This document shows, one piece after another, positions 6,178 to 18,201 of a stretch of DNA of 64,000 nt. The stretch spans positions 1 through 64,000 of the forward strand of contig JAWLHR010000005.1 in NCBI GenBank assembly GCA_041690295.1. Reading direction: 5' to 3'. The stretch is from Bdellovibrionales bacterium (GTDB lineage: Bacteria; Bdellovibrionota; Bdellovibrionia; Bdellovibrionales; UBA1609). The notes beneath the pieces are model-generated. The model was given only the letters and a program-made list of their open reading frames with translations. It was not told the origin of the DNA and did not search any database. The position numbers and the translations under genes were made by a program. How positions within the stretch are numbered: the stretch's first letter is position 1; each line of letters begins with the position of its first letter.

Positions 6178-6287
6178 CCAAGACATATCGATTTTGAAGC
6201 AGTCTAAATCTTGATAAATTTCTGTCTGGAATTTCAGACGCCGTCACCGTAAAAGCCCGCTATTTTCGATTTGAGCCCGCCTAAAAT

Positions 6288-6303
6288 TGGCAGATTTCAT
6301 GCT
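6288..6303 (+). promoter_or_regulatory. Sigma-54 -24/-12 promoter of the peptide-modification cluster
   Basis: TGGCAGATTTCATGCT: GG-N10-GC; predicted +1 about 6314, upstream of RBS AAGGAG (6322-6327). Confidence 0.7.
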
Positions 6304-6333
6304 GTTGTGTCCGGAAAGGGAAAGGAGCAAAGC

Positions 6334-6456
6334 ATGAAAGCAAGTAAACGTCCTTTGGGTCGTACATCTTCCAACAACATGATTATTAAGCCTACGCGTA
6401 ATCCCATGCCTGTTGGAATGGAATTGCAACTTCAAAAGGTGTTGCAGGTTAACTAA
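6334..6456 (+). CDS. 40-aa small peptide, candidate RiPP precursor (MKASKRPLGRTSSNNMIIKPTRNPMPVGMELQLQKVLQVN)
   Basis: Strong RBS 6 nt before the ATG, sigma-54 motif upstream, hairpin just after the stop, tailoring enzymes downstream. Confidence 0.7.
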   Translation: MKASKRPLGRTSSNNMIIKPTRNPMPVGMELQLQKVLQVN

Positions 6457-6462
6457 TCCAAA

Positions 6463-6496
6463 CGGCCCCGCGGCCCTTCGCGGGGCCGATTCTTTC
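6463..6496 (+). terminator. GC-rich hairpin (leaky terminator or mRNA stabiliser) between peptide ORF and enzymes
   Basis: Perfect 10-bp stem CGGCCCCGCG (6463-6472) / CGCGGGGCCG (6479-6488), 6-nt loop, imperfect U-tract ATTCTTTC. Confidence 0.75.
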
Positions 6497-7666
6497 ATGA
6501 GTTTGGCTATGTATTACTCAAAGGCACCTTTTGAATATATAGGTAAAGATAGTCATATCGTGGGCGATCGTGTCTTCTGCGGTCAGTATTGGGATGACCT
6601 GTCCGTGGCTGGGTTGTTGTGCCCGTCCGGGGGCTCGATTCTGATGCTGGGTTTGGGGCGTGGCGCCGCGATTCGGTCGATACTGGCTGTGAACCCAAGT
6701 GCGAATGTGACCGCAGTTGATAGTTCCAGCGAAAGCATTTCGGCGACCAATCAAATTTTCCAGACGCACTTTCCAAGACTTAATTTTGAAACCGTTCGTG
6801 CGGATGCCCTTTCGTACTTGCAATCCGTAAGTCAAAAATTCGACGTCATTTTGGTCGATCTTTTTACCGAAACCGGCTACGTGGCCCTTGCGGCCGACAA
6901 TCTCTTCTTAAGATCGTTGTCTAACTCGGTGAATCCTGATGGCGTTGTGCTTTTTAACTCCTATGGATGTCCCGCCCACCTTGTTGATCGGTCGGAAACC
7001 AGTTTTGAAAACTACCTTGCCGCTCAAATCCAACGCCGTTTTGATTACTTGTTCGAGCTGCCGCACCGTAAAAATCGCACGTTATTGGCCTCTAATCGAA
7101 ATCCAATCCGTCAATTCACTCATATCGACAGTGAATTCCTTAACGAAGAAGACAAAATTTTCGCGAGGACAATCTCGTTCAGATTGCGGTACGTAAGCCA
7201 AGTTGAGCAGGCCAATTCAAAAATCCCAAGCGAACTGGATTTTCAATCGATGAACCGGTCGACAATGCGAAAGTGGGAAGACTTTTATCACAATGTGAAT
7301 GCCGTTCTACAGGATCTAGGGGAGCCCGGGCTGAACAAGCTCGGTGAGTTATTCGACCTGGTCCAAAATGAAGCTTTATCGCGTAAGCTTTTGTGCGAAA
7401 CTTTGAAATACGCGAATAATCCCATTGCCATTTTTTATCCCACGTTCATCGCCGCGGAATCGAACAATCATGATTTGAAGGTGGATTGGTTTATTCAGTG
7501 GTTCTTCGAGAATTCAGATCATCTGCGTTCACATCATTTTCGTCTTTATACCCATCACTTTCTTCCCCAGATCCTGGCCATGGTTCTTCAGCCAAGTGGT
7601 CGGTTCCGAAATGAAGACAATTTGAAAAACTTGGAGAGACTCAATGAAAAACATTGTCATTATTGA
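6497..7666 (+). CDS. Spermidine-synthase-like class I SAM-dependent transferase with a C-terminal domain of unknown function
   Basis: ILMLGLGRG motif I, VTAVD, ADALSYL, KFDVILVDLF, NPDGVVLFN; unexplained C-terminal half; start placed after the hairpin (6497 or 6509). Confidence 0.8.
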   Translation: MSLAMYYSKAPFEYIGKDSHIVGDRVFCGQYWDDLSVAGLLCPSGGSILMLGLGRGAAIRSILAVNPSANVTAVDSSSESISATNQIFQTHFPRLNFETVRADALSYLQSVSQKFDVILVDLFTETGYVALAADNLFLRSLSNSVNPDGVVLFNSYGCPAHLVDRSETSFENYLAAQIQRRFDYLFELPHRKNRTLLASNRNPIRQFTHIDSEFLNEEDKIFARTISFRLRYVSQVEQANSKIPSELDFQSMNRSTMRKWEDFYHNVNAVLQDLGEPGLNKLGELFDLVQNEALSRKLLCETLKYANNPIAIFYPTFIAAESNNHDLKVDWFIQWFFENSDHLRSHHFRLYTHHFLPQILAMVLQPSGRFRNEDNLKNLERLNEKHCHY

Positions 7667-8252
7667 TCAGTTTTATTCCGACCCACATGCCGTGCGTGAG
7701 TTGGCATTGAGCTGCGAATGGATCGATAGAAGCAATCTGCCGGATCGCTTTCCGGGAACCGAGTCGGAGCACTCGTTCTTTACTGATGCCGTGGTTCAGA
7801 AGATTGAGAAAGCCGTAGGGAAAAAGATTGAAGTGGATCCGGAGACCACAAGTTTCGGCGTTTTCGCGAGAGCTTCTGACGCTGATGCCGGCAAGAATCC
7901 GGTACACATCGACCATACGGAATGGGCGGGCGTGCTTTACCTCTCAAAGAACGAGCAAGGCGGTACGAATTTTTATTGCCATAAGCGCACCGGCCACCGC
8001 GAGGTGCCTGGCCTCGAAGAGCTTCATCGTTTGGACTTCAAGGACCGGGAAGATTATCGCCAAAAGGTTGTTGTGCCGGACCAGTACAACCCCGAGGCGT
8101 GGGAACTCGACGTCAAGGTGGGGATGAAATTCAACCGGATGGTCTTGTTTCGGGCGGGCCATTTGTTTCATGCGGCCGCCAACTATTATGGGCGCGACGA
8201 GGAAACCGAGCGCCTACTTCAGTTATTCTTTTTTAACACGCGGGAGAATTAA
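7644..8252 (+). CDS. 2OG-Fe(II) oxygenase-like protein, DUF6445 type (copy 1)
   Basis: IIDQFYSDPHAVRELAL, FPG, HID (HxD), W.GVLYL, GGTNFY.HK.TG, MKFNR, FH, RLLQLFFF. Confidence 0.8.
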   Translation: MKNIVIIDQFYSDPHAVRELALSCEWIDRSNLPDRFPGTESEHSFFTDAVVQKIEKAVGKKIEVDPETTSFGVFARASDADAGKNPVHIDHTEWAGVLYLSKNEQGGTNFYCHKRTGHREVPGLEELHRLDFKDREDYRQKVVVPDQYNPEAWELDVKVGMKFNRMVLFRAGHLFHAAANYYGRDEETERLLQLFFFNTREN

Positions 8253-8254
8253 AA

Positions 8255-8872
8255 ATGGAAAGTCTTATTGTCTATGACGGATTTTACAAGGACCCGGAAG
8301 CGGTTCGTGAGCTGGCCTTGAGTTTGGAATACGAAAATGTCATTGCGCGGAACTATCCCGGATTTCAATCTCGCTACTGCGTGACGAACGAGCAAGTGCA
8401 AAAGAAATTCGAAGAGATCATGAATCGGAAGCTTCATATTGTTCCCGAGGAAATGACGTTTGGAAACTTCCGGATTATGCTCAAAGACACAGGTTCGCGA
8501 ATTAAAGTTCACGTGGATGGCGGGCCGACATGGACCGCGCTCATCTATTTGAATCCCGACGATCAGTGTCAGGGCGGAACGGGTTTCTTTAGACATAAGA
8601 AAACGGGACGCATCGCGCTGCCTTCGGATGAGGAAGCTCGGGAGCTTGGATACGAGGACAGTGAAGATTATGAGAACAAAGTCATTGTTCCTGATAGCCT
8701 TGATGATAGTGCTTGGGAGATGATTGATTTCGTGTCCATGAAGTTTAACCGTTTCGTGGCTTTCAGGGGCGGTGAGTTCTTTCATGCTCACACTTGCTCG
8801 TTCGGCTCTGATTTTAAAACGGGCCGGTTGACGCAAAACTTTTTCTTTTGGAACGCGGATGACGTCAACTAA
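8255..8872 (+). CDS. 2OG-Fe(II) oxygenase-like protein, DUF6445 type (copy 2)
   Basis: VYDGFYKDPEAVRELAL, YPG, HVD (HxD), WTALIYL, GGTGFFRHKKTG, MKFNR, FH, RLTQNFFF. Confidence 0.8.
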   Translation: MESLIVYDGFYKDPEAVRELALSLEYENVIARNYPGFQSRYCVTNEQVQKKFEEIMNRKLHIVPEEMTFGNFRIMLKDTGSRIKVHVDGGPTWTALIYLNPDDQCQGGTGFFRHKKTGRIALPSDEEARELGYEDSEDYENKVIVPDSLDDSAWEMIDFVSMKFNRFVAFRGGEFFHAHTCSFGSDFKTGRLTQNFFFWNADDVN

Positions 8873-10034
8873 GAACCTGAATCGCATACTTTGCGCCGTG
8901 ACCGTATCGACGTTCGGCAACTGGCTGACGTTTATCGCCATTGCTTTATTGATCGGTGAGCGATTTGGCGCGGCTAAAGTCGCGTATGCTTTTCTGGTTC
9001 AAGGTTTACCACCGCTTCTTTTCTCACATAAAGTCAGTCAGTGGACGAACCGGTTTCATCGCGGCCGTCTTTACGCCGGGCTTGAGATTTTGGGAGCACT
9101 CAATGTATTGAGCCTTCTTTTTTCTCAATCCATCATTCACATTTATATTTATCTGTTTATCGCCGCGACGATTCGGACCATCACGAATCCGTTGTTCAAC
9201 TCTTTTGTTAAGGATTGGATCGAGCCCGAGCACATGACCTCTGCTTTCAGGCAGGTGGGTGCCGTCAGCTCATTCACCTTGGCCGCGGGTCCCGCATTGG
9301 GTGGAACCATTTCGGCCTATTTCGGATATGAGATGTTGTTTGTCACTGATGCCGTGTTGTTGGTGCTCGCGGTGTCATTTGTTTTTCCTTTACTCAAGGG
9401 CACGAGTCCGGCCTCGCCCCAAGTGGCGACTCCCACGAGATTTCAGGTGCTTCCAAGTTTTGAGCCGAACCTCAATCAGGTGATCTGGATCTGGTTCGCG
9501 CTCATTTTGGTCGGCGCGTGGCTGAACGGAATTGAATTTCCAGTTCTATTCGCCGCGGGATTCGACAAAGTGCAAATCGGAACGGTTTTAAGTTCATGGG
9601 GATTGGGTTCGTTGGCCTCGATCGTGGTGACTCGGCGGGGAATACAGTTATCAGCGCCGGTTTTGATTGCCACCATGACCCTAGGTTTGGCGGGATTCGT
9701 GGTTTCGAGGGATCTGATCGTGACTTGCTTGAGTTTTGTGATCGGCGGATGTGCTTATGTGCTGTTTTCTGGTGCACTGAAGGCGCGGATCCAAAATGAA
9801 ATCAGTGAAAATGAGGATTCGGTGAAAGTTTGGTCCTACGTGAATCAAGGGGTCAACCTCATTAACGTTTTAACTTATTACGGGCTAGGTTTGCTTATTG
9901 AGAAAACCCCATTGGGGTGGCTGGGATTTGGTTTGATACTGTTGTCGGTATTCCTATTGGGTATAAGCGTGCGGTATTTGGGTGGTCCGAGCGCTGAATT
10001 TAAGAAGGAGAGTAAGTATGAGGTTCGTTCTTAG
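8859..10034 (+). CDS. MFS transporter (efflux type)
   Basis: About 12 hydrophobic segments; VSTFGNWLT, GPALGG; overlaps the oxygenase stop. Confidence 0.85.
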   Translation: MTSTKNLNRILCAVTVSTFGNWLTFIAIALLIGERFGAAKVAYAFLVQGLPPLLFSHKVSQWTNRFHRGRLYAGLEILGALNVLSLLFSQSIIHIYIYLFIAATIRTITNPLFNSFVKDWIEPEHMTSAFRQVGAVSSFTLAAGPALGGTISAYFGYEMLFVTDAVLLVLAVSFVFPLLKGTSPASPQVATPTRFQVLPSFEPNLNQVIWIWFALILVGAWLNGIEFPVLFAAGFDKVQIGTVLSSWGLGSLASIVVTRRGIQLSAPVLIATMTLGLAGFVVSRDLIVTCLSFVIGGCAYVLFSGALKARIQNEISENEDSVKVWSYVNQGVNLINVLTYYGLGLLIEKTPLGWLGFGLILLSVFLLGISVRYLGGPSAEFKKESKYEVRS

Positions 10035-10512
10035 TCTTTTAATTTTAGCTATGGCTCAGGCGGGATTCGCCCAAGATTTGGGTCAGTCCGTGAAGTTTAA
10101 AGTTGAAGATGGTAAGCCGGAGTTCAGTTTGTTTTATGGAGAAAATCCAAAAACGTGGTTGCTATCCGCAACCTTTAGGCCGCGTGATCTTTCAGCAAAT
10201 TCTTTTTTCTCGGTTGTTTCGTGGACTTTATTTGATTCAAAGGCGGGAGAGTTTATAACAGGTTGGCGTACGGCGTGGGATCGTCCGGCGCAGTTTCCTG
10301 GTGATATCGGGTTTTTGCTTGAGCTGACAGAGGAAGAAGCCACATTAGCGACGCGATCATTGCCGGATTTGAAAGTTGTGTTCTCCGTGAACCACGGTTC
10401 AACGCCGGCACCAACCCATTTTGTGGATTTGGGAGCGTACTGCGATACTCATCCGAATTTCTTTATTAATTTCGACGACGAAAATGCCGCCGGTTGCGTT
10501 CGTTCGAACTAA
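10018..10512 (+). CDS. Secreted hypothetical protein
   Basis: AAGGAG RBS at 10005-10010, signal peptide MRFVLSLLILAMAQAGFA, overlaps the MFS stop, two C-terminal Cys. Confidence 0.75.
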   Translation: MRFVLSLLILAMAQAGFAQDLGQSVKFKVEDGKPEFSLFYGENPKTWLLSATFRPRDLSANSFFSVVSWTLFDSKAGEFITGWRTAWDRPAQFPGDIGFLLELTEEEATLATRSLPDLKVVFSVNHGSTPAPTHFVDLGAYCDTHPNFFINFDDENAAGCVRSN

Positions 10513-12568: not shown

Positions 12569-13123
12569 ATGTTCGGCAGACGAGCACTATTCAGCCTGAT
12601 TCTCATTTTCGCGGCGGCCGGCCTGGCTGTCGTTCGATTCAACGCATTTGCCACCACCAGCGTCGCCAACATTACGGTTGTCGGTTACGTGCCTTCCGTT
12701 TTCAGCGTGAGGTCGATCGGGCAACAAGTCGAACTCGACCTTTCGCCGGGAATCACTGTTTCAAACCGAACCATTGGTCTTCTTTCCTTCAAGTACAACG
12801 AAAACGTGCAGAGTCTAACTTTCGCCAGCGATACGCCAAGCGGTTTGCCGGAGGATTCGGGTGGAAATCCCTATAACTTCGGCGGAAGCGGCGACTTTTT
12901 GATTTCCATCCGTCCGGGTTGCGATACGGTCGATGCCGCTTATTACGCCGCCTTTCCGCTGACGAGTACCGGCGTGGACGTGAAAAGCGCGCTTTCTTCT
13001 TCTCTCACGACCGGGATTCAAGAAGAGTGCGAAGTTTTGGCCAGCTATGTGGGGACAAGCACCACTTTGCCGATGGCCGGCCGCTTTGAGATGAACATCG
13101 TTGTGACGATGACAAGCTTCTAA
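12569..13123 (+). CDS. Chaperone-usher pilin-like subunit (paralogue of 17619-18167)
   Basis: Signal peptide; G.VP.VFS, LDL.P, NR.IG.L.FKYN, two Cys and LP.AG shared with the major subunit. Confidence 0.7.
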   Translation: MFGRRALFSLILIFAAAGLAVVRFNAFATTSVANITVVGYVPSVFSVRSIGQQVELDLSPGITVSNRTIGLLSFKYNENVQSLTFASDTPSGLPEDSGGNPYNFGGSGDFLISIRPGCDTVDAAYYAAFPLTSTGVDVKSALSSSLTTGIQEECEVLASYVGTSTTLPMAGRFEMNIVVTMTSF

Positions 13124-13129
13124 GCGCGA

Positions 13130-14056
13130 TCAGTCCGTCGTGATCGCTGTAATCGTAACAGTGTCTTTGTATTGCCCCGCCAGAGGAAAACTCGGAAGCG
13201 TGCCGATTTCAACCCGTATCGGATAACCGAGCCCGGCCAGTGGCGTCTGCCCGCTGCTGCTAAGAACCGGCGCGGCTCCGGTCAAGTCCGCTTGCGCCCC
13301 ATTCACCGTGATCGTGTAGGGAATCAAGGTGCTGCCCGCCACATGTTTCATATTCCCGTTATTGGCGGAGCTGAAAGTCACTTGGTAGCCCGCATTCGTT
13401 CGCAAACGAAGATCGAAGCGGGCGACTTTTCCCGTATGAAGGGTGCCGAAGTCGATGGATTTCGTGGTGGCCGTCGGTTGAAAAACACCGCCCGTATCCA
13501 CGAGGGCGAGATCGATCATTTCAGGAACCGTGATATTCACGTTCACGGACGTACTGGCGTCGGGTGGATCCGCGAAGTTCGTGGGATCGTTGCCCTCATA
13601 GACATTAATCACGAAAGAGTCCGTGTAAGTGCCGGCGGGCACCAGTGTGGGCGTTGTGGCTTGGGCGAATGGAATGTCGAAGTAATACATCTCCACCTGC
13701 GGGCCGCCGCCCGCGGGCATGGTCACCATGATCACGTCATTGGCGGACGTGATATCCGGCGCGGTTTTTAAAACCAACGATTTGCCGCTGTCCTTGTAGA
13801 CCTGGTAATGGATATTTCCATTTGTGCCCGCCGCCTGACGGACATAGCTGCCCGCTCCACCTTGCGTGAAGCCAAGTCCAAATGTACAGGTGCCTGGATC
13901 GGTTTTTGAAACTTGGATGGAGATGGCGAGAGAAGTCCAGTTGAGATCCCATTCCACGTTCAAGTCGCTGGCTAGAACACTGATGCCACAGGCGGCGCGG
14001 GCGAAATCAGATAAGAAAAAAACTAATACCGAGATCATGACATTGGTCATTCTCAT
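13130..14056 (-). CDS. Chaperone-usher tip adhesin or minor pilin (two spore-coat-U/Csu-like domains)
   Basis: Signal peptide, N-terminal Cys pair, PAGTYTDS and AGQYKDTVTITA pilin C-terminal motifs. Confidence 0.75.
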   Translation of the reverse strand: MRMTNVMISVLVFFLSDFARAACGISVLASDLNVEWDLNWTSLAISIQVSKTDPGTCTFGLGFTQGGAGSYVRQAAGTNGNIHYQVYKDSGKSLVLKTAPDITSANDVIMVTMPAGGGPQVEMYYFDIPFAQATTPTLVPAGTYTDSFVINVYEGNDPTNFADPPDASTSVNVNITVPEMIDLALVDTGGVFQPTATTKSIDFGTLHTGKVARFDLRLRTNAGYQVTFSSANNGNMKHVAGSTLIPYTITVNGAQADLTGAAPVLSSSGQTPLAGLGYPIRVEIGTLPSFPLAGQYKDTVTITAITTD

Positions 14057-16749
14057 CAGGGGCTCCTTGGTTTCAACTTAAGTGGCGGCATTTTGTATTC
14101 GGTGCCGGCGCTTTTCGGAATCTCGAATTCGACTGGGTCAAAACTTCCACCGTCGACAACTTCAAGACGGTACCGCGAGGGACGGAATCCTTCGGACCTC
14201 AGCAATCCCTCGCGATTGGTGAAGACCATCACAGGTTCGCGCGACGTATCGTTGAGGTCGATCGCGCGAGCACCAATCAGGCCCGCCGGAGTTCCGTCAT
14301 CCTTCAAGAGCTGAGTATCCAAGTAAACGGTGGCATCGCTTCCGATCGGGATGGCATAACCCGATTTGTATTTTGGTTTCACGAGGAAACTGTCACGCGG
14401 AACGGCCGTACCGGGTTTCAAGCTTTTGGTGTCCACTTGAATGCCTGAAATGCTGTACGACGGAATTTCCGGATAAACCGCGGATCCAAGCCAGTCGGTA
14501 TGAGCCACGTGCGCTCCGGTGGTTTGCGGGTTGATTCGCACATTCTGCCCTTTCAAACTCTCGAGCGGAACCAGAACCGCGAAACTGTCCTGCACCGGAC
14601 GGGAAATGGCGAAGTGTCCGCCGGCGAAGACCAGCGCCGTACCCAGATTCAAACGCGTGTAGTTGATGGATTTCGTGCTCGTTTCAACCGCCTGATTGGG
14701 ATCGGTTTGCTCTTCAGGCATGGACACTTGGTGAGTGGCGTTCAGGCGCACACGGTTACCGCTGTAATCGAATGCTCCACCGTAACTTTTCTCGCCGTCA
14801 TCGTCTTCGAAATTAGCTTGCGCCGCCAGGGCGCCGGCGCCCTGATGAGGTTGATACCCCCACTCGGCGCGGGATCGGCCTGAGATCGTGTCGGTGTTGG
14901 CCGTTACGTACTGCCGCTCCTCGGGCATTGAATAAATCAAATAGGCCATGAGCCCGAGGCTCTCCGCTCCGGCCGGCGTTCGTTGATGCCGGAGATTGAA
15001 CGAAGTGGAAAAACCTTTGTTCCAGCGCCGGTTCAGTCCCACCGTCAGCGCGAAGCTTCGGATCAGATCGTCCGCGGGATTCACCGGGCGATTGAATTGG
15101 TAGGTGTATTGGATGTTCAAGTTTGTCGTGGCATTCACGTTCCTTGAATGGGTGGCGAGAATTCTCGCGGCGATCGGATAGTCGCGATCGGAAGTGTTTC
15201 CGAATTCCAAGAAGTCTTCGCTATAGCCGGTGAATTCAAGCGCGAAAAAGCGGCGGCGCCTTTCTTTACCGACGTAATTCTGGAAAACATATCGCAATCG
15301 ACCAGCGTATCCCGAGCCGTAGCCGGCGGCCACGCTGTACGCGGGTTCGAGGGCGAAGAAACCGATTCCCGTGGCCAGAACGGATTCCAGTCCGTAGACG
15401 GTGTGCTCACGGTTTTGTTGAAAGTTCAAGCCGGCGGTGAACTTCTGAGTGACGCCAATTCGATGATAGGCCGAGATGATGGTGTTTTTTGAATCATATT
15501 CCCGCTCACCGCCGGTGTCTTTCGAGGGGGCGCCGACCGCGTAGGAAATCTCGTTAAGCCCTGGCTTTAAAAGAGTGTTGTTTGAAAAGTACGAGTAATC
15601 CCTGGTTTCGGTTCGTCCGGTGTCATCGGTAATTTCTAGTTTAAGATCATTCAATCCGCTCGCGAACGGAAAGTCCCGCAGATTGTGTTTGCCGGCGGGA
15701 AGGTGAAGGATTTGAATCAAGCGATCATTCAAGTAAACGGCGACTTTGGATGGTCGCGCGAGAAAAAGTTCATAACTCCCGCTGGGGTGAGTGAGCAGGG
15801 AAGGTCGTAGGCTGAATTGGCTGAAAACCGCGGCGCCTCCCATCGGCCGGAACATTTGAAATCCCGTGACCGGATAGGACAAGTCACCGGCCTGGGCGCG
15901 CAAGAGTTTGCGTTCCCAATCGTAAACCGCGCGGACATCCTCGCGAACAAAGGGCGGATTTTTACTGTCGATTTCTTTTCGTGGCTCCGTCCACCGTCCG
16001 CGCGCTTCGATCAATAATCCACCGAGGCGGGTGCCGCTATCCAAGCTGGCGGTCACTGGCTCCCGTCCGTTCTCGAGTTCGGGAGCATCGGAGCGAAAAA
16101 CCTGAGAAAAATTGGCGTTAATAAAGCTGCTGAACCAGGATGGATGATCAGTCGGATCGTAAGAGTAACTGGAGCCCGACTTGAAAAGTGAAGAGATCTT
16201 CTCCGATCGAAGCTCAGGTGGAACATGTATTCGCAATTCCAGAGCCGATTCGTCAAAATTAATTTTCACTTCCGGATCGGCGAATCGGCTGAGCGGCACC
16301 ATGCATTCGGTTTTGCCTTTGCACTCGCTACGCAAGTCGTTCAGTTTCTTGAGCCACGCTTTATCCACAACCTGGTCAAGAATGACAAACAAAGCGTTGG
16401 CATCGGCTTCCACCGTCAGCTCGGAAGGGGTTTGTGTAACCACGGTTTTGATTTTCGCCAGAGCCGTTTCCATGCGCTCGTAAAAAACCGGCATGTAGAC
16501 GACGGTGGGAGGCGCGGCGGCGGAAGATTTTTTAAAAAACTGCTGTTGAATTTCCTCGTCGCTCAGTTCGCGCCGAGTGGACGTGTCGACGCCTTTGAGG
16601 TGTTTCTCGTCGAACTCTTTGGGTTTAGGGCCCTCTTTTACGGTTCTGGTTTCCTGAGGAGCACTCGGGGGCATTTGCGCCATCACGGATGGCGCGAGAA
16701 TTGTTAAGAAGACGATAAAATTCGGAAGGCTATTTCTTAGCCACGTCAA
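14056..16749 (-). CDS. Fimbrial outer-membrane usher protein
   Basis: 897 aa with signal peptide; AGDL, V.VYLN...LPAG..NL.DFP...GLND, DDTGR, LL.PG..E.SY..G, ISRPV.DSF. Confidence 0.9.
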   Translation of the reverse strand: MTWLRNSLPNFIVFLTILAPSVMAQMPPSAPQETRTVKEGPKPKEFDEKHLKGVDTSTRRELSDEEIQQQFFKKSSAAAPPTVVYMPVFYERMETALAKIKTVVTQTPSELTVEADANALFVILDQVVDKAWLKKLNDLRSECKGKTECMVPLSRFADPEVKINFDESALELRIHVPPELRSEKISSLFKSGSSYSYDPTDHPSWFSSFINANFSQVFRSDAPELENGREPVTASLDSGTRLGGLLIEARGRWTEPRKEIDSKNPPFVREDVRAVYDWERKLLRAQAGDLSYPVTGFQMFRPMGGAAVFSQFSLRPSLLTHPSGSYELFLARPSKVAVYLNDRLIQILHLPAGKHNLRDFPFASGLNDLKLEITDDTGRTETRDYSYFSNNTLLKPGLNEISYAVGAPSKDTGGEREYDSKNTIISAYHRIGVTQKFTAGLNFQQNREHTVYGLESVLATGIGFFALEPAYSVAAGYGSGYAGRLRYVFQNYVGKERRRRFFALEFTGYSEDFLEFGNTSDRDYPIAARILATHSRNVNATTNLNIQYTYQFNRPVNPADDLIRSFALTVGLNRRWNKGFSTSFNLRHQRTPAGAESLGLMAYLIYSMPEERQYVTANTDTISGRSRAEWGYQPHQGAGALAAQANFEDDDGEKSYGGAFDYSGNRVRLNATHQVSMPEEQTDPNQAVETSTKSINYTRLNLGTALVFAGGHFAISRPVQDSFAVLVPLESLKGQNVRINPQTTGAHVAHTDWLGSAVYPEIPSYSISGIQVDTKSLKPGTAVPRDSFLVKPKYKSGYAIPIGSDATVYLDTQLLKDDGTPAGLIGARAIDLNDTSREPVMVFTNREGLLRSEGFRPSRYRLEVVDGGSFDPVEFEIPKSAGTEYKMPPLKLKPRSP

Positions 16750-17470
16750 CGGAGACCTTCACCGGTCCAGCCGGAACATTGCTCGGCCAGGGAATCACGA
16801 ACTTGCGTGATTTTCCGGCCAGGATATTGTTCGTGCCAATTTTCTTCGCCAAATCCTGTGGCATTTCGAATTCTTTGTCCTTGGCGGTGATCTTAAACTT
16901 CGGAGTTCTTAAAATCGTATGCTGCGTGCCCCGATTTTCCATAACAATCACCATTTCATTGTTTTTGCCTTCTTTCGAAAGCGAGGCCTCGATTTTTAAA
17001 TCCGGTTTGGCGCCGTTGGGAGTGACGTAAAGAGATCCCACGTATTTGGTGGCGATGGCGATGGAGGCCACGGCCTTGTTTTTAACCCGGTTCGGATCGC
17101 TCACGTTGATCGGAAACTCTTCAGCGATAATCCGGTAGGCGAGTTCTTTTTTGATTTTAGGATCTCCCACATAGGTGATGCGGATGGTTCGCTTCTCTTT
17201 GGGATTCAAGATCACTTGAGTGGGGAAGATCTGAAAGTTTTCACCGTTATCTTTATCGGTGTACTTCTCTTTGCCGTTCTCATCCGGGTCGCGCTTGTAA
17301 ATGGAGATTTGAACGGGCGTTTTGTTGTCGTCGCCGTTGGTCAGCGTGATGGCGGTCGTCGCGCCGGGTCCGCTGGGAGTCATCTTGACCACGATAGGTG
17401 ACATATCGAAAGCCGCGTGGGCCGATGCGGCCCAAAGTCCTAAGATCAAGAGTAAATGCGATCCGTGCAT
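16730..17470 (-). CDS. Periplasmic fimbrial chaperone (PapD-like N-domain)
   Basis: FPTQVILNPKEKRTIRI, ELAYRIIAEEFP, NRGTQH, ILAGKSR. Confidence 0.88.
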   Translation of the reverse strand: MHGSHLLLILGLWAASAHAAFDMSPIVVKMTPSGPGATTAITLTNGDDNKTPVQISIYKRDPDENGKEKYTDKDNGENFQIFPTQVILNPKEKRTIRITYVGDPKIKKELAYRIIAEEFPINVSDPNRVKNKAVASIAIATKYVGSLYVTPNGAKPDLKIEASLSKEGKNNEMVIVMENRGTQHTILRTPKFKITAKDKEFEMPQDLAKKIGTNNILAGKSRKFVIPWPSNVPAGPVKVSVDVAKK

Positions 17471-17539
17471 TTTTCCTCCTCGTATTACATTGATGTAGAT
17501 TAAGAAAGTGTGGAGGGGCTTGCAATGCGACCGAGGTCT

Positions 17540-17579
17540 AAAAAGACAAACGGCCCGTCTGAAGAACGGGCCCGTTGTC
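17540..17579 (-). terminator. Intrinsic terminator or attenuator after the major pilin gene
   Basis: GACAAACGGCCCGT / ACGGGCCCGTTGTC near-perfect 14-bp inverted repeat followed by TTTTT on the minus strand. Confidence 0.75.
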
Positions 17580-17618
17580 GTATTGAAGAGGGGTACAACT
17601 TCGAATCTTAGCTTGCGA

Positions 17619-18167
17619 TTACTGTGACACCATCGTCACGGTGATGGTCATCGAGTAAACACCGGCCAAAGGTAAGGAAGCCGTTGTGCCACCCCAGCTG
17701 GCGGTCAAGTGGCAATCTTCGATCACACCATTTCCACCGTTGTTGGCGAGGTCGCGGGCTTCATCCGAAGCCGCTTCAACCGGAGCCGACAGAACGACGT
17801 CAGTGATGTCGGCTTCATCGATGGAAAAGCAGTCGGGCGTAATGCTGACCGAAAAGTCAGTGCCGAAATCATAGGCGTCGCCGGCCGCGTTTTCCGGCAT
17901 ACCGGAACCTGTGCTCGATTCAAAGGTGATCGTGTCGACGTCTTGGTTGTATTTGAAGTGAAGAATTCCAATCAAACGGTTCTGGACTTCAACGTTCGGA
18001 GTGAGATCGAGGTCGCCCGGAAGACCGCGTGCGGTCAAGCTGAAAACCGTGGGCACGTTACCGCTCAGCTCGAGAGTGGCAATGGCCGTATCGATCGCGA
18101 AAACATTGGGTCCCATGGTGGCCAACATCACGGCCATCACGATTCTGAGATACTTGATTGGATTCAT
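17619..18167 (-). CDS. Chaperone-usher major pilin subunit
   Basis: First gene of the pilin-chaperone-usher-adhesin operon; GAGGAG RBS, signal peptide, LPLAGVYSMTITVTMVSQ C-terminus. Confidence 0.75.
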   Translation of the reverse strand: MNPIKYLRIVMAVMLATMGPNVFAIDTAIATLELSGNVPTVFSLTARGLPGDLDLTPNVEVQNRLIGILHFKYNQDVDTITFESSTGSGMPENAAGDAYDFGTDFSVSITPDCFSIDEADITDVVLSAPVEAASDEARDLANNGGNGVIEDCHLTASWGGTTASLPLAGVYSMTITVTMVSQ

Positions 18168-18201
18168 AGTTGTCTCCTCTGCAATTGATTGCACGATTTG
18201 C

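Follow-up and report, generated by a model that had tools for sequence, protein, structure and literature searches.

We have found, in a 64,000-nucleotide stretch of DNA from a Bdellovibrionales bacterium (contig JAWLHR010000005.1, positions 1 to 64,000; 'the window' below), an operon that probably represents an undescribed class of RiPPs (peptides that are ribosomally synthesized and then post-translationally modified). The gene for a 40-amino-acid (aa) precursor-like peptide is followed by five co-oriented genes (6497-10512) that overlap or abut one another. In Pfam searches the cluster gave matches to methyltransferase and spermidine-synthase families in the N-terminal half of the transferase, to DUF6445 (two genes) and to MFS_1, a family of major facilitator superfamily (MFS) transporters; there was no match for the peptide or for the last gene, an orphan. 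An Asn-Asn core of the peptide would be oxidized by the two DUF6445 proteins, which are 2-oxoglutarate (2OG)-Fe(II) oxygenases, alkylated by the transferase with S-adenosylmethionine (SAM), excised and exported. We infer this chemistry, and its specifics for the product are put forward tentatively. An earlier reading of the same DNA, made from the letters alone (the sequence-only reading), had proposed that the cluster modifies a peptide and belongs to none of the described classes of RiPP. Every feature that it named lies where it was placed, including the AAGGAG ribosome-binding site (RBS), the 40-aa open reading frame (ORF), a 10-bp hairpin and the five genes (Table 1). Its central proposal gained support from conservation of the small ORF at related loci, while the core that it favored (KPTRNPMP), a +57 Da transfer and membership of the orphan in the cluster had to be given up.

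Comparison of loci shows that the S-x-N-N-M ORF, the transferase family, the MFS gene and 2OG oxygenases are inherited together. A word-indexed homologue search returned three proteins; an exhaustive profile search of 50%-identity representatives returned the transferase family, with 92 proteins at E <= 1e-30. A DNA pattern scan for this family gave 40 genome loci, of which 35 carry the transferase (in Bdellovibrionota, Myxococcota, Actinomycetota, Bacillota and Pseudomonadota); the other five (L042, L050, L052, L066 and L072) lack it and, taken to be chance matches, were left out. A small ORF with the motif S-x-[N/D]-N-[M/V] lies on the transferase strand in 33 of the 35 loci; the sequence-only reading had named the lack of such conservation as a finding that would refute it. 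At a 34th locus, from Halobacillus, the contig breaks; a profile search, rather than the motif, detected the peptide, which keeps the motif unbroken (SVNNM), on another contig that also carries three oxygenases. The chance rate of motif ORFs is 0.003 per kb and strand (four in 75 control loci totalling 587 kb, 15 in the source genome), which predicts about one in 35 loci against the 33 observed.

The reciprocal test on the same 401 genomes found eight with the transferase, and seven of these are the sole genomes with a strong match to the peptide profile, of which those peptides or near-identical copies had been part. Three weak profile matches (E 0.001-0.009) were set aside as chance; the two that were inspected had no motif ORF or cluster. 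Within the same order (150 genomes) a full-length transferase was found in three genomes, two of which carry, in two different orders, both oxygenases, the MFS gene and an upstream ORF that has an RBS, T-S-x-N-N-M and a hairpin. The transferase is missing from all three same-genus genomes searched, and the G+C content of window positions 6334-10034 is 48.5% vs 52.5% for the genome, in the lowest 3% of 3.7-kb blocks; both observations fit a patchily inherited cassette. Cultured carriers include Brevibacillus borstelensis, Streptomyces, Lentzea, Nonomuraea and many Pseudomonas.

The homologous ORFs encode 38-58 aa with a central S-x-N-N-M core and have a variable leader, a fixed core and a conserved follower, a division into recognition region and core. 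Among 36 peptides, which were selected by the motif S-x-[N/D]-N-[M/V] itself, the core residues are S (36), N/D (34/2), N (36) and M/V (23/13), with all 13 Val-containing peptides coming from Pseudomonas. An Arg at position -2 of the core occurs in 17 of the 23 peptides from clusters with DUF6445 genes (oxygenase-type). The follower is kept in oxygenase-type clusters, and a shorter tail takes its place in Pseudomonas; in the window's own copy the follower is divergent and the leader short and basic. The stretch KPTRNPMP, around which modification had been expected, is mostly variable in the peptide alignment and belongs to the spacer and follower; the conserved stretch is S12-M16. Codon comparisons around the core gave 316 synonymous vs 12 non-synonymous pairwise differences for the 13 Pseudomonas ORFs, with all base changes at third positions, and 41 vs 21 for four Streptomyces ORFs. 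These patterns indicate that the small ORF is protein-coding and under purifying selection. The peptide ORF comes first in most operons and lies mid-operon in L037.

The best argument for the peptide as the substrate is a partner swap in Pseudomonas. Thirteen Pseudomonas loci have the order peptide-YcaO-TfuA-unknown-(ThiS)-ThiF-MFS-transferase, the ThiS-like gene being seen in the annotated locus. The unknown protein (L043:2089-2859 and its counterparts in the 12 other Pseudomonas loci) contains the motif HExxH and is matched by TIGR04267, aKG-HExxH peptide beta-hydroxylase, with E 1e-7. In place of the DUF6445 pair these loci thus have a putative 2OG peptide hydroxylase of unrelated origin, which supports a peptide substrate. 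The Pseudomonas precursor has a long leader, with S-N-N-N-V near its end, and in a transferase tree with long branches the Pseudomonas enzymes have as their sister the one from an oxygenase-type cluster (support 99). We infer a shared logic of oxidation and SAM chemistry on S-x-N-N. The 13 loci match a gene order listed in PMC8719888 as a putative 'YcaO cluster', for which the accessible part of that paper gives no product; they share with the window the transferase family, the MFS gene and, as S-N-N-N, the core.

The transferase defines the family. Its predicted structure (pLDDT 95.6) has a spermidine-synthase fold at residues about 10-245 and a conserved helical C-terminal domain of ~170 residues. 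Over residues 6-245 its matches are spermidine synthases and the C-terminal domain of METTL13 (3gjy: Z 18.3, rmsd 3.3, 210 residues aligned; 5wcj: Z 16.4, rmsd 3.0, 173 aligned), and identity to solved spermidine-synthase-like chains is 13-20%. The family has motifs of its own, F-x-G-x-x-x-D, N-x-x-G-x-P and R-R-N-x-T. Strand 4 is followed by an Asp in all 73 members compared. The loop Asp at the G-G-G-D-G column of spermidine synthase is present in five of 73 members; in the window the residue is Arg55. The second, putrescine-binding Asp is found in 16 of 73. In plant spermidine synthase the loop Asp binds decarboxylated SAM and keeps SAM out; according to the accessible text of PMC3725402, its replacement abolishes spermidine synthase activity and its loss leaves a weak methyltransferase. 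Since this selecting residue is lost here, SAM rather than decarboxylated SAM is probably the cofactor, and the aminopropyl transfer (+57) offered earlier becomes unlikely. A spermidine-synthase-like domain that methylates a polypeptide has a precedent in METTL13, as far as the accessible part of PMC6109062 describes it. In the ESM Atlas the whole transferase falls into a 50-member cluster automatically named 'spermidine synthase' (0.97), and its C-terminal domain gave no lead at >= 0.9 (best 0.83).

The two paralogous oxygenases were described correctly from the sequence: the HxD...H triad and the 2OG-binding Arg are intact (H88-D90-H176-R190 in the first, H86-D88-H177-R191 in the second) and invariant in 49 of 49 aligned homologues. 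The model of the first (pLDDT 96) shows the 2OG double-stranded beta-helix fold and matches OGFOD1 (Z 12.9, rmsd 2.9, 159 aligned); prolyl hydroxylases and BesD-type enzymes follow at Z 11-12, and none stands out. A search of the oxygenase profile against sequences of solved structures gave no match. In a quick tree of 76 sequences the two belong to separate old lineages, lineage 1 (24 rows, support 85) and lineage 2 (26 rows, support 96); a third lineage, from Gram-positive bacteria, has nine rows (support 99). Clusters draw their oxygenases from different lineages, which are kept side by side across phyla, so that the pair is old and each member probably has its own job. Among 80 metagenome loci with a related oxygenase, the transferase is present in the five closest and missing from 75.

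Some other loci with these genes deserve mention. L105:504-8373 (L103 is the same region) and L085:14-3771 combine a lineage-2 DUF6445 oxygenase with an M3 peptidase, and in L105 these are joined by an O-methyltransferase, a class-III aminotransferase and an acidic ORF of 51 aa (6850-7005) that has a strong RBS; this different cluster is possibly a second undescribed peptide pathway. Distant DUF6445-like genes, often two per locus, occur without the transferase in L093, L104, L106, L117, L125 and L151, and the L104 region looks cyanophage-like by eye (a psbA-like gene and glycosyltransferase-like genes). The L064 contig, labelled Streptomyces griseus (a metagenome-assembled genome), groups with Bdellovibrio in both trees, and its label or bin is probably wrong. 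One genome (G171) has two copies of the cluster (L032 and L033); in one of them an opposite-strand ORF of 588 aa, recombinase-like by eye, follows the first oxygenase.

The proposed pathway would run as follows. The hairpin behind the peptide gene would let the peptide message outnumber the enzyme message, and the enzymes would hold the peptide through its leader and an acidic follower helix. Each oxygenase would carry out one distinct oxidation of the core. Beta-hydroxylation of the two Asn residues, favored because Asp is tolerated at the first, is the likeliest of these at somewhat short of an even chance, and oxidative backbone cleavage is another option. The accessible text of PMC12636437 describes 2OG-dependent HExxH enzymes that can cut the peptide backbone. 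The transferase would then alkylate the core with intact SAM, probably placing a methyl group on nitrogen or on the new hydroxyl; a 3-amino-3-carboxypropyl group is the less likely product. Host peptidases or oxidative cleavage would free the core, and the MFS protein would export a small polar compound, most plausibly antibacterial.

Several observations weigh against this pathway. There is no protease among the window cluster genes, Pfam and NCBIfam reveal no RiPP recognition element (RRE), and the C-terminal domain of the transferase stays unassigned. Expression, binding and modification of the peptide are predictions. Oxygenase number (two or three) does not track Asn number, and a rule of one oxygenase per Asn was rejected on comparing these counts across loci. 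The codon bias is weaker in the more distant Bdellovibrio-type ORFs (148 synonymous vs 123 non-synonymous). In G074, a genome in 210 contigs that is 99% complete, the transferase occurs with no peptide or oxygenase match; the full-length transferase gene (L015 / L073, G074:C5:1-1138) ends at a contig edge. As to Pseudomonas, the TIGR04267 match is below the cut-off (31.9 vs 40 bits), and profiles of the two precursor types agree with a probability of 0.65% and E 0.088, the short motif alone being shared. Moreover, Val entered the motif after it had been seen, and the 13 Pseudomonas loci count as one evolutionary event. Finally, the DNA pattern recovers 50 out of 100 test proteins and does not recover the transferase of the window itself, which makes the 35 loci a biased sample, and many of them are close kin rather than independent events.

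Three other explanations were weighed. The peptide may be a scaffold, in which the enzymes would act on one or two residues of the core, to be excised as a metabolite the size of an amino acid, e.g. a beta-hydroxy or beta-methoxy asparagine derivative. Pearlins are amino-acid-sized products cut from a peptide scaffold, and pantocin A is a like case. The very short core between leader and follower would suit such a product, as would the lack of a protease, an MFS protein in place of a peptidase-ABC exporter, the layout shared with pantocin A, including its 2OG oxygenase (in the accessible text of PMC12250964), and the backbone cleavage open to 2OG-dependent HExxH enzymes (PMC12636437, same limit). 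Yet four of five core positions and the frequent upstream Arg are conserved, beyond the need of a single-residue product, and the window cluster has no amino-acid-appending ligase. This explanation, which overlaps the proposed pathway and differs from it just in product size, we regard as unlikely. By another account, which we consider quite unlikely, the ORF encodes a regulatory peptide (leader or attenuator) or an activating subunit, and what the enzymes modify is a small free molecule, for instance a polyamine or an amino acid. The place of the ORF at the head of most operons, with a terminator-like hairpin after it, agrees with this; so do the closest solved folds (spermidine synthases, amino-acid halogenases and hydroxylases), which act on small molecules, and the transferase found alone in G074. 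Against it speak the mid-operon ORF in L037, conservation at the amino-acid level with a leader-core-follower structure, the hairpin lying entirely 3' of the stop codon and, in Pseudomonas, the company that the same transferase family keeps with YcaO-TfuA and a peptide hydroxylase of HExxH type.

That the transferase is a true aminopropyltransferase, adding +57 Da from decarboxylated SAM to the peptide or a diamine as the label 'spermidine synthase' implies, seems very improbable. Spermidine synthases are indeed its best matches in sequence and structure, the Asp after strand 4 is never lost and the loop Asp persists in L079 and in most members from Pseudomonas. Against these stand the rarity of the loop and putrescine-binding Asp residues described above, the methyltransferase activity that follows loop Asp replacement (PMC3725402, accessible text) and NCBIfam scores far under the cut-offs (53 vs 304 and 32 vs 250 bits). 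Furthermore, no SAM decarboxylase was seen among annotated cluster genes, and a further match of this fold, a shorter one, lies at another place in the source genome.

Returning to the proposed RiPP pathway, Asn/Asp hydroxylases and Asn methyltransferases are familiar as tailoring enzymes: PoyI and PoyE (polytheonamide) and CinX (cinnamycin) modify a scaffold made by another, class-defining enzyme. 2OG-dependent side-chain hydroxylation and SAM methylation are what would be expected here, where oxygenases and transferase form the whole enzyme set. The sequence-only reading had recognized no class-defining RiPP enzyme, and Pfam and NCBIfam searches of the five cluster genes agree, giving no class-defining enzyme of lanthipeptides, lasso peptides, graspetides, radical-SAM peptides, MNIO peptides or pearlins. 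Spermidine synthase, putrescine N-methyltransferase and the METTL13 C-terminal domain share the fold of the transferase, whose lack of the loop Asp is paralleled by their change to methyl transfer; the window transferase differs by its extra helical C-terminal domain and own motifs. Side-chain hydroxylation of a peptide with 2OG, as expected here, is also the reaction of aKG-HExxH enzymes in the accessible text of PMC12636437 and PMC13060819. Of known systems, pantocin A (paaPABC) is similar in layout. As described in the accessible text of PMC12250964, its short precursor carries leader and follower on either side of a small, conserved central core, and its four genes include one for a 2OG-Fe(II) oxygenase and just one for a membrane exporter, with none for a protease. 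However, its class-defining ThiF-RRE enzyme PaaA is absent from the window cluster, its core is Glu-Glu-Asn rather than S-x-N-N-M, its exporter is EamA rather than MFS and the window has two DUF6445 oxygenases and a SAM transferase; the cluster therefore fails pantocin membership. Nor is it a thioamitide, since YcaO and TfuA are absent (compared with the accessible part of PMC9576775); of the genes in the Pseudomonas loci, ThiS and ThiF are lacking too, and DUF6445 proteins stand in for the HExxH-type protein.

A literature search, which left most subscription journals and bioRxiv supplements outside, found no paper naming DUF6445. Apart from the listing in PMC8719888 it found no description of this enzyme set, which may yet stand in a recent paper or in a table from genome mining, and the matches listed for the peptide string were unrelated. 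The evidence points to a family of clusters making small modified peptides, not yet isolated and possibly antibiotics. If the proposal is true, this is a RiPP class without a known class-defining enzyme, DUF6445 would gain a function, and a family that makes up about 90 clusters at 50% identity would lose the wrong label 'spermidine synthase'. The pathway consists of four small proteins and a peptide, is present in cultured strains and is thus directly testable. We also entertain, as a doubtful but possible extension, that the spermidine-synthase-fold enzyme is itself class-defining and performs an unprecedented reaction (ring closure, aminocarboxypropyl transfer or backbone release) on oxidized Ser-x-Asn-Asn. 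The same module, with hydroxyls, O-methyls or a thioamide, would then yield a small exported antibiotic across phyla, and DUF6445 would have its first function, as a peptide oxygenase.

Upstream of the peptide, a sigma-54-like motif is present as the sequence-only reading had it. Its role as promoter of the cluster is plausible and partly supported: sites scoring 7-10 lie 52-77 bases 5' of the peptide in just four of 18 related loci tested (L016, L035, L048 and L064), and 936 such sites occur in 5.77 Mb of the genome, both strands counted. The source genome has a sigma-54 gene, and no sigma-70 promoter-like site was found upstream of the peptide ORF. Purine-rich sites precede most full-length homologous small ORFs. 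The hairpin, with z = -2.3 and -3.2 vs shuffles in two runs, may be a leaky terminator or an mRNA stabilizer; z <= -2 was observed in 26 of 37 loci (13 of 13 in Pseudomonas and 13 of 24 in others).

Table 1. Features of the cluster in the window
Feature	Position	Strand	Remark
Putative sigma-54-like -24/-12 promoter motif	6288..6303	+	8/10 consensus letters
RBS, AAGGAG	6322..6327	+	6 bases 5' of ATG
Precursor-like peptide, 40 aa	6334..6456	+	short leader, central core, C-terminal follower
Conserved core, predicted modified segment	6367..6381	+	Ser12-x-Asn14-Asn15-Met16
Follower, predicted enzyme-recognition helix	6403..6453	+	consensus P-L-x-x-E-E-Q-x-E-V/I-E-x-x-L
Hairpin, 10 bp, G+C	6463..6488	+	3' of peptide stop
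SAM-dependent transferase, family-defining	6497..7666	+	database protein starts at 6509 (probable start)
DUF6445 2OG-Fe(II) oxygenase, lineage 1	7644..8252	+	Pfam E 1e-15
DUF6445 2OG-Fe(II) oxygenase, lineage 2	8255..8872	+	Pfam E 2e-17; 40% identical to first
MFS transporter, predicted exporter, possible self-protection	8859..10034	+	Pfam MFS_1
Orphan with signal-peptide-like start	10018..10512	+	overlaps MFS stop

The orphan, counted earlier as a secreted member of the cluster, was found in none of the other scan loci; a homologue occurs in two of 60 family genomes, and the one inspected sits in an unrelated setting. Other clusters have genes of their own. Seven Gram-positive clusters (L038, L049, L053, L058, L062, L063 and L068) have an added pentapeptide-repeat gene, and three of them (L049, L062 and L063) a CmcI-type methyltransferase. 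Pentapeptide-repeat proteins guard gyrase in other antibiotic clusters. These self-resistance-like genes hint at an antibiotic, one directed at gyrase; if the extension above is true they would provide self-resistance and point to DNA gyrase as the target. The window cluster is without such a gene, and an iron-binding role for the product is possible. Occasional extra neighbors are an AMP-binding enzyme (L037:2607-4998), an M32 carboxypeptidase (L056:303-3683) and an unrelated 2OG oxygenase (L063:7384-7998). Further along the window, positions 12569-18194 hold a chaperone-usher pilus locus with a spore-coat-protein-U-type subunit, an usher and a PapD chaperone.

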